Shown piece by piece: positions 14,994 through 34,199 of a DNA stretch of 64,000 bases. This stretch comes from Candidatus Poribacteria bacterium (GTDB lineage: Bacteria; Poribacteria; WGA-4E; PCPOR2b): assembly GCA_963665285.1 (NCBI GenBank), contig OY762266.1, positions 1,568,001 through 1,632,000 of the forward strand. The letters run 5' to 3'. Every line of letters starts with the position of its first letter. The stretch's first letter is position 1. A program made the translations under genes and the position numbers. The notes under the pieces were generated by a model. That model was given only the letters and a program-made list of their open reading frames with translations. It was not told the origin of the DNA and searched no databases.

Positions 14994-16058
14994 TTAGGGG
15001 AGGGAGTTGACCCCTATCAGATTGTTTCTGTCCATAACCTGCGGAGATTGTCTCTCAACGAAGGGCTCGATTGACCGATCTTCAATGATCCGACTGCCCT
15101 TGGATTCAAAGCGGAACGCCAACCGCGAAAGCCCCAAGTCAGAAAGTGCCGCCGTTACAGCCCCCTGTTTCGCTTTGGGGACATAAAACAGAAAGTATCC
15201 GCCTCCCCCTGCTCCTAGAATCTTGCCGCCTAGCGCACCCGCAGCGACAGCACACTTATAGATCCTATCCAACATCGGATTTGAAATGCTATCACAGAGG
15301 GAGCGTTTCAGCTGCCAACCGCGATGTAATAGATGTCCAACCTCGTCTAGGCAACCATCGTGGTTGCCCTTTACAAGGACATCGTAAAACGCAGGTACAA
15401 GCTCCTTGATTTGTAGTAGCGTCTGGGGACTTGCAGAACGTTTCTGTTCGTGCAAGATGGTCTCGGCGCGTCGTTGAATCCCCGTGTAGAATAGGGTGAG
15501 ATTCTCTTCCAAATGGGTTATAGTCTTGGGGGTTACTGGGATGTCCTGCGTATCGACACTCTCGTCTTTGTCGAACCGAATGCGCTGCAACCCACCGTAA
15601 GCAGCGATATACTGATCCTGCTTCCCGATAGGCTGGTTCAGGCGTTCTATCTCAATTTCACACGCTTGCTGCGCGAGAGTTTCCGTTGACATCTCGATTC
15701 CTTGATAGGTGTAGAAGGCATTGAGAAGTCCGACGGTCAATGCGCTCGACGACCCCAACCCACAGCCGCGCGAGGGGATATCGGAAGTAACTGTGATAGA
15801 TACGCCGCCGGGCACGTTGGTTTTTCGCATTGCTTCCCGAATCAAAGGGTGCTGGATTTGGTCAGGGCTATAAACCGTTTCATGGTGGTCTGGGGTGTTG
15901 ATAGCAATTTGAGAGTTTCGCCGCCTTGTGATACGAACGGAGATGTATTTGTCAATAGCGGTACTGATGACCTCTCCCCCATATTGTCGATAAAAGTTGG
16001 CGATGTCGGTGCTGCCTCCTACCAAACTGATGCGTATTGGTGTGCGTGAAATAATCAT
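14994..16058 (-). CDS. GHMP kinase, HddA-like (heptose-7-phosphate kinase family), copy 1
   Basis: SRTPIRISLVGGSTD, GCGLGSSS, IGKQDQY, GGKILGAGGGG. Confidence 0.9.
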   Translation of the reverse strand: MIISRTPIRISLVGGSTDIANFYRQYGGEVISTAIDKYISVRITRRRNSQIAINTPDHHETVYSPDQIQHPLIREAMRKTNVPGGVSITVTSDIPSRGCGLGSSSALTVGLLNAFYTYQGIEMSTETLAQQACEIEIERLNQPIGKQDQYIAAYGGLQRIRFDKDESVDTQDIPVTPKTITHLEENLTLFYTGIQRRAETILHEQKRSASPQTLLQIKELVPAFYDVLVKGNHDGCLDEVGHLLHRGWQLKRSLCDSISNPMLDRIYKCAVAAGALGGKILGAGGGGYFLFYVPKAKQGAVTAALSDLGLSRLAFRFESKGSRIIEDRSIEPFVERQSPQVMDRNNLIGVNSLP

Positions 16059-16067
16059 GAGTTCCTC

Positions 16068-16856
16068 CTATACCGGTTGGGGATCTGATTGATGCGCTTT
16101 CCCGCTCGGTGGCTTTTGGAAATAAACACCGTGGCTGTCAACGGTTTTGAAGACAACACCCTCGATTTGATGTTCCTTGAGATACTCCGTTATCGCTTGC
16201 CGACAACCTTGCCAGGTCCAATAATCATCCAAAACAATAAATCCTCCGTCAACCACCTTGTCATACAGTTCCTCAAGAACCACTTTGACTGACTCATACC
16301 AATCGGCATCAATATGCAGGAGAGCGATGGTTTTGATAGGTTCGGCTCTCAAGGTTGAATCAAACCACCCTGCGATTATTCTGACAGGCTCCAACGAGAG
16401 ATGAAGTTGATTGAAAATCTTTGTCACCTTTTCAACCCTTCCGCAACACCAACCCTCAAAATAGGCGTCTTGGGCGCGTTCACCGTCCTTACTGCCCGGT
16501 GTAGGTAGTCCAGCAAAAGAATCAAAGAGCCAAAAAGTTCTCAAGGGGTTTCCATCACCTCGACATGCCGCACCCATAATTGCGGCGGATCCGCCATTCC
16601 ATACCCCACACTCCACTATATCTCCGGGGAGATCGGTTGCATTCACCCGTTGGACTAATTCATAGAGGTTAATGAGTCGTTTCACTGAAACCATCGTATA
16701 TTGGGGCTTCACCCGTAACAGCAATCGAGCCAAATAAAATGACCTTTTTGAAGGTTGACGGATGAGCCAGAGCAGAATGTCAGCCAACGCCTTTGTCAAA
16801 AACAGTATGCGACCAATGAGAAAATCGGGCGATCGAAGTTTAATAAGATTTATCAT
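16068..16856 (-). CDS. TylF/MycF/NovP-family sugar O-methyltransferase
   Basis: GDIVECGVWNGGS, FDSFAGLP, LLHIDADWYES, GGFIVLDDY. Confidence 0.92.
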   Translation of the reverse strand: MINLIKLRSPDFLIGRILFLTKALADILLWLIRQPSKRSFYLARLLLRVKPQYTMVSVKRLINLYELVQRVNATDLPGDIVECGVWNGGSAAIMGAACRGDGNPLRTFWLFDSFAGLPTPGSKDGERAQDAYFEGWCCGRVEKVTKIFNQLHLSLEPVRIIAGWFDSTLRAEPIKTIALLHIDADWYESVKVVLEELYDKVVDGGFIVLDDYWTWQGCRQAITEYLKEHQIEGVVFKTVDSHGVYFQKPPSGKAHQSDPQPV

Positions 16857-16861
16857 GACGA

Positions 16862-17869
16862 CTAGCGTGATAGGGGGAAAATTAATTCACGGCAAAACCC
16901 GATAGACCACCCTGTGACAGCAAGAACAATTACCAATGGAACACAAAGCGTGGCTGAAAACGACTTCGTCTGCAAAAATGCAAAAGTGCAGATTAGCAGT
17001 AACCCCACCATAATCAATCCGAGAAAAATGAGAGCAAGATTTAGATTAATCAAAAAGGAGAGACTGAAACAAATGATGGAAAGTGGAACACTCAGACCAA
17101 CCGCAATGTGAACCACGCTAAGGAGCGAGTGCCACTTCTTACCTAACTGTAAGCGCATGATAGCATATCGATACATCTGTCGAAAAAATCCCCGTGGCGT
17201 TTCCCGTTTGTAATGCCAAACCTTGACATCCGGCGTCGAAAGAAGCGAAAAGCCTCGTTGTCTCAGAAGATAATTCAGTTCAACATCCGCCCCGCCTAAT
17301 AGGTTTCCTGCCAACGGCATGACAGCGTTTAACGCTGCTTTCCGATAAATGGCGTTACAGGTCGGGAAATCTTTCACGACTTCTACCGTCCGCTGTGTCT
17401 CTTTGTGACTCGATTTGCCCAAAGTCACAGCGATGGAGAATAGAAAAGCGACTGCTTTGGCGAACGCGCTCTGCTGGGGAGGGAGATGAATCGGTCCGGT
17501 GAGACCGGCGACTTGTGGATCAGCCTCGAAATACTTGACGCTGTTTTGGATCCAGTTTTGGTCAACAATACAATCTGCATCTGCGTAAGCGACCAATTCC
17601 CCTTTTGCACACTTAAACCCACGGTTGACGCCCGTTCGGTGCGACTTTTTGGGATTGTCCACCATGGTGAGGTCGTAGGACGCTGCAATTTCCCGTGTAT
17701 TATCGGTTGAAAGTCCATCAACGATCAGAATCTCCATCCGTTCTTTGGGGTAGTTGAGGTTCTTGAGACTGTCGAGACAGTCCCTCAAGGTCCGCTGGGC
17801 ATTCCAAGCGGGGATGACTATAGAAATAAAGGGGAATTGAGTCTTATTGTTCATCTTTGGTAAACTCAA
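16862..17869 (-). CDS. GT2 glycosyltransferase with C-terminal TM helices
   Basis: SIVIPAWN, VDGLSTD, YADADC, FFRQMYRY, hydrophobic C-terminus. Confidence 0.92.
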   Translation of the reverse strand: MSLPKMNNKTQFPFISIVIPAWNAQRTLRDCLDSLKNLNYPKERMEILIVDGLSTDNTREIAASYDLTMVDNPKKSHRTGVNRGFKCAKGELVAYADADCIVDQNWIQNSVKYFEADPQVAGLTGPIHLPPQQSAFAKAVAFLFSIAVTLGKSSHKETQRTVEVVKDFPTCNAIYRKAALNAVMPLAGNLLGGADVELNYLLRQRGFSLLSTPDVKVWHYKRETPRGFFRQMYRYAIMRLQLGKKWHSLLSVVHIAVGLSVPLSIICFSLSFLINLNLALIFLGLIMVGLLLICTFAFLQTKSFSATLCVPLVIVLAVTGWSIGFCRELIFPLSR

Positions 17870-32954: not shown

Positions 32955-32969
32955 GCAATTTTTGTGCCA
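32955..32969 (-). promoter_or_regulatory. sigma54 -24/-12 promoter (cassette A)
   Basis: Minus strand TGGCACAAAAATTGC, about 60 bp upstream of 32894. Confidence 0.88.
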
Positions 32970-33116
32970 CCTTTCCTTTTGAACCCTATTTCTTCCACCG
33001 CTATACCCCGACGTAACGCTTGAAACCCTTACAGTGTCTGCATTAAGACGACCACCACACATTCTTTATTTTTTTTATTAAGGGGGGATACAAGTATCGC
33101 ATTCAGGATAGGAGTT

Positions 33117-33174
33117 CTGCCAAAGATGGCAGTTTGTCTGCCACTTTTGGCATGCCAACTGCCATTTCTGGCAG
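33117..33174. promoter_or_regulatory. Putative enhancer (UAS) palindromes
   Basis: CTGCCAAAGATGGCAG (33117), CTGCCACTTTTGGCAT (33138), CTGCCATTTCTGGCAG (33159); 21-bp spacing. Confidence 0.78.
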
Positions 33175-33185
33175 ATTCCTCGCGT

Positions 33186-34199
33186 TCATAAATTGTACTT
33201 GGCTAATTTTCGGTAAAAGGTGCGCTGGGGGATATTCAGCAGCTGCGCCGCTTCTGCCTTATTCCCACCTGTCCGTTCCAACACGTGACGGAGATACTGT
33301 CCTTCATAACGCGCCAATGCGTCGCTCAATGGTAGGAAGGGGGCTTCACCCATACCTGCTGTCTCATCGTCTAGATGGGATACAGAATCAGGGGCATTTG
33401 ACGGGCTAGGTTCATCAATTTGTGTCACTGGAGAGGAAGGTAGGTCAACGTGAGAAGACCGAAAATGCAGATGTTTGGGTTGAATCGCTTCACCGTTGCT
33501 TTCAATCACGGCATGTTCGATGATGTGTATCAGTTCACGCACGTTCCCCGGGAAGGGGTATGTCTCCAAAGCCGCCGTGGCTTCAGGAGTCAATGGTGGC
33601 GTTGGCACGCCCATTTGAGTCGCAAACTGACTCAAATAGTATTCAGCAATGAGGGGGATATCCTCTGTTCGCTCACGTAACGGTGGAATCCAAATCACCA
33701 CGCCCTCCAAGCGATTGTAGAGATCTGACCGAAATAGCCCTGCATCCACCTTCGCTTGGAGGTCCGCATTGGTGGCTGCTATTACCCGGATATCCGCTGT
33801 TTTGCCCACCGTTGCACCGACCGGCGTGATGACGTTATCGTCCAGAACATGAAGGAGTTTGACTTGGCTTTCGATAGGCATTTCCCCAATTTCGTCGAGA
33901 AACAGTGTTCCGCCATCGGCTGTTTCAAAATGACCTTTATGATATTCCGTCGCTCCGGTGAATGCACCACGGACATGGCCAAAGAAAGTGGATTCCCAGA
34001 GTGTAAAGGGAGTTGCACCGCAATTGACCGGCACATAAGGTTTTGACGCCCGGGGCCCTCCAAGATGAATGGCTTGAGCGACCAATCCTTTACCGACACC
34101 GGTTTCACCTGTAATCAGAACTGGTATCTTGCTGTTGTTGCTGAGTTGGTGGATGGTTGTGTGAATGGTTTGCATGGCAGGACTTTTACCAAGAAGCAT
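33186..34199 (-). CDS. sigma54-dependent transcriptional activator (AAA+ and Fis HTH) lacking an N-terminal sensory domain
   Basis: GETGVGK, GAFTGA, LFLDEIGE, FRSDLYNRL, FPGNVREL, GGNKAEAAQLLNI. The AAA+ domain begins at residue 2. Confidence 0.95.
   Translation of the reverse strand: MLLGKSPAMQTIHTTIHQLSNNSKIPVLITGETGVGKGLVAQAIHLGGPRASKPYVPVNCGATPFTLWESTFFGHVRGAFTGATEYHKGHFETADGGTLFLDEIGEMPIESQVKLLHVLDDNVITPVGATVGKTADIRVIAATNADLQAKVDAGLFRSDLYNRLEGVVIWIPPLRERTEDIPLIAEYYLSQFATQMGVPTPPLTPEATAALETYPFPGNVRELIHIIEHAVIESNGEAIQPKHLHFRSSHVDLPSSPVTQIDEPSPSNAPDSVSHLDDETAGMGEAPFLPLSDALARYEGQYLRHVLERTGGNKAEAAQLLNIPQRTFYRKLAKYNL

Follow-up and report, generated by a model that had tools for sequence, protein, structure and literature searches.

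Some bacterial transferases that decorate secreted proteins are encoded just downstream of their own acceptor, as described in PMC9829042 for the pairs PglS-ComP, TfpO-PilA and TfpM-pilin. In oligosaccharyltransferases DXD and TIXE/SVSE motifs have been described, and in AglB the glutamate of external loop 5 (EL5), at the TIXE/SVSE position, binds the peptide backbone (PMC8342417). The WWDYG motif is usually seen as a defining, strictly conserved element of N-oligosaccharyltransferases, changes to which kill PglB, and W457S makes the C. jejuni enzyme inactive (PMC3527161, Table 2). Here we describe two modules, A and B, in a 64,000-nucleotide stretch (the window) of the 6.26-Mb single-contig genome of Candidatus Poribacteria (G000), each with genes for a small secreted protein (the cargo), a TolB-like propeller, a single-pass membrane protein (the anchor) and, behind these, an STT3/AglB-fold transferase. 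Such cassettes are a real, phylum-wide pattern of Poribacteria and may each serve to decorate a protein of their own, under rules that are new. The original prediction, made from the letters of the window, had contrasted the modules with PglB systems, whose substrates are unlinked; this is true of PglB itself, but co-encoded substrates are known among O-linking oligosaccharyltransferases.

All module open reading frames (ORFs) were found at the coordinates first proposed, co-oriented on the minus strand, and the family assignments were borne out by matches to PD40, GT2, TylF, GHMP/HddA-like, flippase-like TIGR00374 and Sigma54_activat families. Both transferases (A, 25280–28060; B, 17866–20577) match PF02516 (STT3) over its cut-off, with E values of 7e-13 and 4e-14; the best NCBIfam match of both is TIGR04154 (E 2e-23 and 1e-17), with scores of 82 and 64, both below its cut-off of 450. 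Each has about 13 membrane helices followed by a C-terminal globular domain. An AlphaFold2 model of transferase A, built on a 17-sequence alignment, reaches a predicted local distance difference test (pLDDT) score of 84.4, with the C-terminal domain kept and modelled confidently, and the first 19 Foldseek matches to it are STT3, AglB or PglB, with DPY19 and ArnT lower, as expected from the proposal that these proteins of about 900 residues model as STT3 folds. Profile alignment to human STT3A places D43, D157/D159, E350 and R482 of transferase A on the catalytic motifs, and the catalytic acids are likewise kept in B. The +2 Ser/Thr-binding WWDYG motif is replaced by SWEHG in A and by HWEYG in B, and the DGGK position reads DAEP and DEQQ. 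In the DK/MI motif region the Asp is present and the Lys/Ile position is variable after the last conserved strand, as judged by alignment only.

The same combination of kept catalytic residues and altered pocket extends through the 64-sequence clade of these enzymes, some members of which may lie outside Poribacteria. D157, E350, R482 and W649 are present in 64/64, D43 in 62 and D159 in 60, and DEEQ-like words stand at the DGGK position; WWDYG is kept in only 14, and 39 different five-residue words occur in its place across the clade. In the nearest clade, which has DGGN-type words and whose four named members are Woesearchaeota/Nanoarchaeia (DPANN archaea), WWDYG is found in 71/71. Because the +2 Ser/Thr pocket has diversified while the metal-binding and amide-activating residues are kept, the acceptor rule of these transferases is, to judge from their sequences, probably not N-X-S/T. 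Genome G020 carries enzymes with five different words at the WWDYG position, contrary to the rule given in PMC3703281 that paralogues within one organism share one pocket type. The clades were taken from a midpoint-rooted tree of 135 aligned sequences of at least 790 residues, 17 of them from genomes and the rest from the best profile and search hits (top 150); as it has no outgroup, this tree does not give the direction of transfer between archaea and Poribacteria. An archaeal origin of the family has a precedent in the few bacterial homologues placed within archaeal AglB clades (Lombard 2016, PMC4973528).

To describe the surroundings of these enzymes, a sample of 64 regions was drawn from the highest-ranking of more than 650 matches, and 60 of them together with the window gave 63 transferase starts. 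A cargo-like ORF (70–260 residues, an N-terminal hydrophobic stretch and a polar mature part, no more than 8 kb upstream and on the same strand) precedes 37/63 transferases, compared with 60 of 2828 control genes (2.1%), all G000 genes of at least 300 residues, an enrichment of about 30-fold. An intergenic sigma54 motif is found at 24/63 transferase loci and at 123 of the same 2828 control genes (about 4%). The expectation that the secreted gene would vary beside a conserved transferase holds, but the four-gene core that had been proposed is only partly conserved: the module-B unit recurs in genomes G014, G045 and G043, whereas other cassettes do without the propeller and anchor. Instead, four helper sets recur, with the same cargo-first gene order in each: (i) the propeller and single-pass protein seen in the window; (ii) LamG-like proteins, DUF1573 and MauE/DoxX; (iii) a C39 peptidase-DUF1573 fusion with Cys-rich cargos that have a double-glycine-type leader behind the signal peptide; and (iv) an 85-residue six-Cys peptide directly behind the sigma54 motif, then single-pass proteins. 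In some cassettes a larger single-pass protein is the helper. In most loci of the window's family GT2 and flippase-like genes lie downstream of the transferase, and the AglJ/DPM-like GT2 proteins are 90–95% identical across cassettes of the same genus.

Module B is orthologous in G000, G014, G045 and G043, the last from another class of the phylum, which permits comparison of its parts. Between the window and G014, the cargo is 32% identical, the propeller 46%, the anchor 83% and the transferase 92%, and the G014 cargo gene is broken by one stop. On these sequences the front end of orthologous modules changes fastest, with cargo and propeller swapping while the transferase stays. The propeller may be a scaffold or chaperone, as first suggested; since it swaps along with the cargo, it fits equally well as a cognate partner of the cargo, such as an immunity protein or a receptor. 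Within the window the two modules had been read as one duplicated cassette, but a recent duplication was not borne out: transferases A and B are 30% identical, neither the cargos nor the anchors show BLAST similarity to each other, and the propellers are about 36% alike, a level usual among the roughly 100 paralogues that the genome contains. The modules are thus better described as old paralogues. Their arrangement is not an assembly artefact, because a 12,640-bp contig (16034–28673) with both transferases is letter-identical in 4/4 sequencing runs from two studies, and one of these runs may be the source sample.

The control region upstream of module A begins with a sigma54 activator (33186–34199), an AAA+ protein with Walker A and GAFTGA motifs and a Fis-type helix-turn-helix and lacking an N-terminal sensory domain. 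Next to it are three TGCCA-N4-TGGCA palindromes at 33118, 33139 and 33160 (33118–33173), a candidate enhancer conserved in relatives, followed by a -24/-12 promoter match (32955–32969). Module B has two such palindromes, at 22992 and 23024 (22992–23037), and a promoter match (22830–22844) 157 bp upstream of its cargo gene; 25 of these palindromes occur in the whole genome, five of them in the window. The predicted identity of the two control regions holds for the promoters, which share the same 15-nt match, and for the presence of palindromes at both, but promoter A stands 2.7 kb before module A. It leads first into a UshA-like metallophosphoesterase gene with four CxxCH motifs, cytochrome c554-like (31524–32894), and a gene for a DUF1573 Ig-like repeat protein with an N-terminal anchor (30508–31545), after which a 275-bp gap precedes cargo A. 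Nor do both promoters adjoin an activator, as had been thought: the intact gene is next to promoter A only, and in front of promoter B about 30 nt of the activator 3' end are left as a remnant (23061–23097). The activator has a 78% paralogue at a third cassette of G000, where the secreted-protein cassette driven by a third activator-promoter copy lacks an STT3 gene. The block of activator end, enhancer and promoter is kept in eight aligned loci irrespective of the downstream gene, and in a related strain (run X6) one contig lacks the 10,117 bp in between, so that the activator adjoins promoter B; on both grounds the block appears to behave as a reusable switch. A sigma70-like match ahead of cargo A (30292–30265) was discarded, as it is not kept in G006 and G017 and such matches occur near chance (34 versus 26 ± 5). 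G000 has two sigma54 (rpoN) paralogues, at C1:1842455 and C1:3945890. The UshA-like gene is the first gene behind promoter A in many relatives and opens many cassettes; its product belongs to a (seleno)protein family, scoring above the NF041198 cut-off, and has Cys (PCGC) where others are read as Sec.

The cargos themselves match no known family. Cargo A (29673–30233; 186 residues, eight Cys) and cargo B (22116–22673; 185 residues) have no Pfam or NCBIfam match at E 0.05 and no usable match in the ESM Atlas, and for cargo B Foldseek found nothing at E 0.001 in the PDB and viral libraries. Cargo A is 44–47% identical to the cargos of G006, G017 and G162 over the first 36 residues and 19–27% over the remainder. 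Cargo B belongs to a small poribacterial family of nine members with invariant Y-x-A-x-N, TYHxA, H, WE and YT elements; two of the homologues come from Poribacteria, and a metagenome scan with the family alignment gave one clear locus among four listed, the other three being chance-like. It is modelled as a seven-stranded beta-sandwich (pLDDT 70) with a low-confidence, Pro-rich insert. Among 48,161 chains, the best structural match is the MspA rim domain (Z 8.4, root-mean-square deviation 3.5 over 115 residues), which is near background for the tool, with the next unrelated match at 6.9, followed by beta-pore-forming proteins (Z 5.7–6.6) and adhesin Ig-like domains; in a model of this quality the likeness to MspA is a lead only. 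The same may be said of a His and a final AYT strand that seem by eye to be common to the cargo sequences. A single cargo superfamily was sought by profile comparison and rejected, since only two families are joined (91–94%) and other pairs score E 0.003 or worse.

Propellers A (28586–29512, likely start 29512) and B (21007–22008, likely start 22008) are TolB-like in the PD40 propeller only: they have no N-terminal TolB domain and score 222 and 154 with TIGR02800, against 343. Each ends in a poribacterial xWGxxK motif (AVxPxxKLxTxWGxxK type), as do 72 of the 4516 G000 ORFs of more than 150 residues. This motif (28586–28670 and 21007–21090) is common to propeller and LamG-like proteins and is possibly an undescribed sorting signal. 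An 83–85% copy of propeller A lies at G000:C1:4076153-4077175, near a propeller array and with no cargo. Anchors A (28063–28581, likely start 28581) and B (20558–20941, likely start 20941) follow, the latter with homologues in G014, G045 and G043. Downstream of transferase A are the flippase-like protein (24279–25268; LPG synthase transmembrane region/TIGR00374) and an AglJ/DPM-synthase-like GT2 (23093–24286), a candidate polyprenyl-phosphate sugar synthase. Transferase B is followed by a GT2 with C-terminal membrane helices (16862–17869), a TylF-family O-methyltransferase (16068–16856) and a GHMP sugar kinase (14994–16058) that is HddA-like although below the NCBIfam cut-off, with three 78–80% paralogues elsewhere in the genome.

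Starting from the observed fold, motifs, gene order, linkage and cargo swapping, we lean slightly towards a modification dedicated to each cassette and following non-canonical acceptor rules. The two modules would then belong to a family of accessory cassettes that is large in Poribacteria. The activator without a sensory domain and the enhancer-promoter block would turn on, through sigma54, a presumably co-transcribed operon whose first gene encodes a small, fast-changing cargo exported by Sec, and which continues with one or more periplasm-facing partners and ends with the STT3/AglB-type transferase and enzymes for a putative lipid-linked sugar donor. The GT2 would load sugar onto polyprenyl phosphate, the flippase-like protein would turn it outward, and the transferase would hand it on, within the periplasm, to the cargo encoded in the same cassette; TylF, the HddA-like kinase and extra glycosyltransferases (GT2/GT4) would vary the glycan. 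The type of linkage and the role of the product we infer in the same conditional way.

Several observations weigh against a cargo-dedicated enzyme. The 30-fold excess of cargo-like ORFs was obtained with classifier thresholds set after examples had been seen and in genomes that are kin rather than independent; by this automatic test, strict enough to miss cargo B, 26/63 loci have no cargo, some of them being short. Transferases with no cargo are found at loci L040, L046, L058, L080 and L082, and cassettes with no transferase in G000 at 5.24 Mb, in G022 and at two more G000 candidates. Two G020 enzymes that are 94% identical stand beside unrelated cargos, so the enzyme is not matched to any single cargo sequence. 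In transferase A a Ser stands at the place of the W457S substitution listed as inactivating for PglB (PMC3527161). Nor are the cargos enriched for the N-X-S/T sequon: 38 automatically picked cargos have 65, compared with 55 ± 6.5 after shuffling, and 70 of 1000 shuffled sets were as high. When 41 hand-picked cargos were split by enzyme (leaving out three whose enzyme motif is unknown), nine beside WWD-intact enzymes have 16 sequons versus 15.5 expected and 29 beside altered enzymes have 37 versus 36.1. At least one sequon is present in 30/41 and none in 11/41, including three of the nine beside WWD-intact enzymes. The single sequon of cargo B is not kept among the nine members of its family, in which another Asn (Asn67, in Y-x-A-x-N) is invariant. 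On these results canonical sequon targeting is unsupported, and with WWDYG altered in both enzymes the analogy to canonical N-glycosylation in the original prediction is weak. C-mannosylation-like WxxW sites are also not an answer, being found in only 2/41 cargos.

The missing sequon enrichment would be accommodated if the transferase acted on other proteins, such as the propeller, LamG-like or single-pass proteins or a wider surface set, with the cargo a co-regulated passenger. Propeller B, anchor B, the UshA-like protein and the DUF1573 protein bear sequons, anchor B (83%) tracks the transferase (92%) more closely than the cargo does (32%), and the five loci with a transferase and no cargo fit as well. 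However, propeller A and anchor A have no sequon, helper types differ completely across cassettes while the small secreted gene recurs, and a general system needs no multi-copy, varied pockets in one genome such as G020; we regard this explanation as unlikely. A general housekeeping PglB pathway in particular was rejected, with no STT3 gene in G000 beyond the two transferases and the family absent from many of the near-complete relatives searched. Its profile matches 123 of 176 Poribacteria genomes (E ≤1e-10, a few weakly): 99/112 in one taxonomic family, 12/28 in the window's own, and 0/11 and 0/7 in two others. Because the distribution is patchy, yet the transferase is multi-copy in other genomes, it argues against a housekeeping role.

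Loss of WWDYG might instead reflect loss of peptide binding altogether: like other GT-C enzymes, the transferase would take a sugar or phospho-polyol off its lipid carrier and pass it to another lipid or to a glycan of the cell surface. The 39 variants, with WWDYG in only 14/64, look as under relaxed constraint, the DGGK-equivalent is now DEEQ-like, and a CDP-alcohol phosphatidyltransferase-like gene lies directly 3' of the STT3-like gene in several loci of family f2. Yet the EL5 glutamate is kept in 64/64, and so is the motif's second Trp; the C-terminal globular domain is retained and confidently modelled, and such a role would leave unexplained why small secreted proteins are so tightly linked, which makes a non-protein acceptor quite improbable. 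We are most doubtful of an arrangement in which cargo and propeller form an effector-immunity or signal-receptor pair, and in which the activator-promoter block is a recombination hot spot that collects unrelated surface genes, those for glycosylation among them, behind it, with the transferase not tied to the cargo. Cargo and propeller do change together while the rest stays, the 85% copy of propeller A stands alone in a propeller array elsewhere in G000, cargo B has its best structural match in the MspA rim (Z 8.4) and others among beta-pore-forming proteins, and the X6 contig joins activator to promoter B across 10,117 bp. But different classes keep the order cargo-propeller-anchor-transferase, as random accretion would not, the match in structure lies close to background and comes from a model of only pLDDT 70, and an effector role is in any case compatible with glycosylation of the cargo.

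Cassette-dedicated modification can be extended into a broader, tentative proposal, which we consider possible though doubtful: that Poribacteria took an archaeal AglB, multiplied it and made it the tailoring enzyme of a polymorphic secretion system resembling that of RiPPs (peptides synthesised ribosomally and modified post-translationally), with hypervariable proteins and Cys-rich peptides exported by sigma54-induced cassettes and the product of each cassette modified by its STT3 enzyme at a non-sequon site. This site would be an Asn with no +2 Ser/Thr, or another residue; some products would be cut by the periplasmic C39 peptidase, and the hundreds of propeller and LamG proteins that have a C-terminal motif in common would make up a corresponding set of immunity proteins or receptors.

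Other loci seen in the course of this work illustrate the range of cassettes. At G000:C1:5236555-5243076, the third activator-promoter copy drives a UshA-like gene together with genes for a 232-residue single-pass protein, a 140-residue 11-Cys precursor, a 333-residue protein and a C39-DUF1573 fusion; with a double-glycine-type leader on the precursor and no STT3 gene, this cassette looks like a Sec-exported RiPP-like cluster. Secreted ORFs of 124 and 93 residues (Cys-rich) with single-pass flanks and no STT3 gene are found at G000:C1:1451648-1457383 and 5155420-5159059, and one of these two loci adjoins an activator without a sensory domain. In family f2 (L065-L079), the 85-residue secreted peptides have six Cys, with C-x6-C at both ends, and lie directly behind the sigma54 motif and upstream of short STT3-like genes; their Cys spacing may resemble that of glycocins. 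The phosphatidyltransferase-like neighbours are at L075 (confirmed with Pfam), L081, L082, L083 and L097 and may point to an unusual lipid donor. Many cassettes (L025, L039, L062, L064 and L087) have a transferase, C39 or cargo gene broken by an insertion element, stop or frameshift; it seems that they are often inactivated or lost. In the window, a plus-strand group at 34866–39892 encodes a GNAT acetyltransferase, a Zn-dehydrogenase, an epimerase (apparently cut short at 37703), an HddA-like kinase and a nucleotidyltransferase; similar genes lie beside the cassettes of G014, G002 and G005, and the sugar may come from their products. A minus-strand tandem array of at least eight WD40-repeat genes occupies 45728–63742, in a GC-richer block with strong skew.

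In the literature covered we found no description of these cassettes, nor of STT3 or oligosaccharyltransferases in Poribacteria (subscription pangenome papers lay outside its scope, and an earlier mention is possible), and 'glycosyl', 'STT3' and 'sigma' do not occur in the main text of PMC3909097 (Kamke 2014; its supplements were outside this scope). The cassettes suggest that a dominant, uncultured phylum associated with sponges has a diversifying system of secreted products that had gone unreported. They also form a natural library of single-subunit STT3-fold enzymes, with catalytic acids intact, dozens of pockets and a candidate acceptor gene adjoining, which makes acceptor specificity directly testable and could give glycoengineering enzymes with new site rules.

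Among known systems, the AglB/STT3/PglB enzymes (GT66, PF02516) share with the poribacterial transferases the fold, the helices, the C-terminal domain, both DXD motifs, the EL5 glutamate and the arginine, but the WWDYG and DGGK features are not kept (SWEHG/HWEYG; DAEP/DEQQ), and the poribacterial enzymes are accessory, multi-copy and tied to small secreted genes. The PglS, TfpO and TfpM pairs are alike in gene order, the cargo gene lying upstream of the transferase in the same operon-type arrangement, a likeness of linkage only. Those enzymes are O-linking oligosaccharyltransferases of 420–600 residues acting on type IV pilins, whereas the poribacterial ones are STT3-fold proteins of 650–950 residues beside several unrelated, non-pilin kinds of cargo. 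One cassette type resembles RiPP and double-glycine-leader bacteriocin clusters, with Cys-rich precursors, an (L)SDxxMxxLxG leader behind the signal peptide and a C39 peptidase that retains its Cys and His. It differs in that export is by signal peptide, that C39 is fused to DUF1573 and not to an ABC transporter, and that tailoring would fall to a periplasmic STT3 enzyme with a lipid donor. The double-glycine leader and C39 peptidase are present in this sister cassette type and in the third cassette of G000 and absent from the two window modules, whose cargos A and B are beta-sandwich proteins without such a leader.

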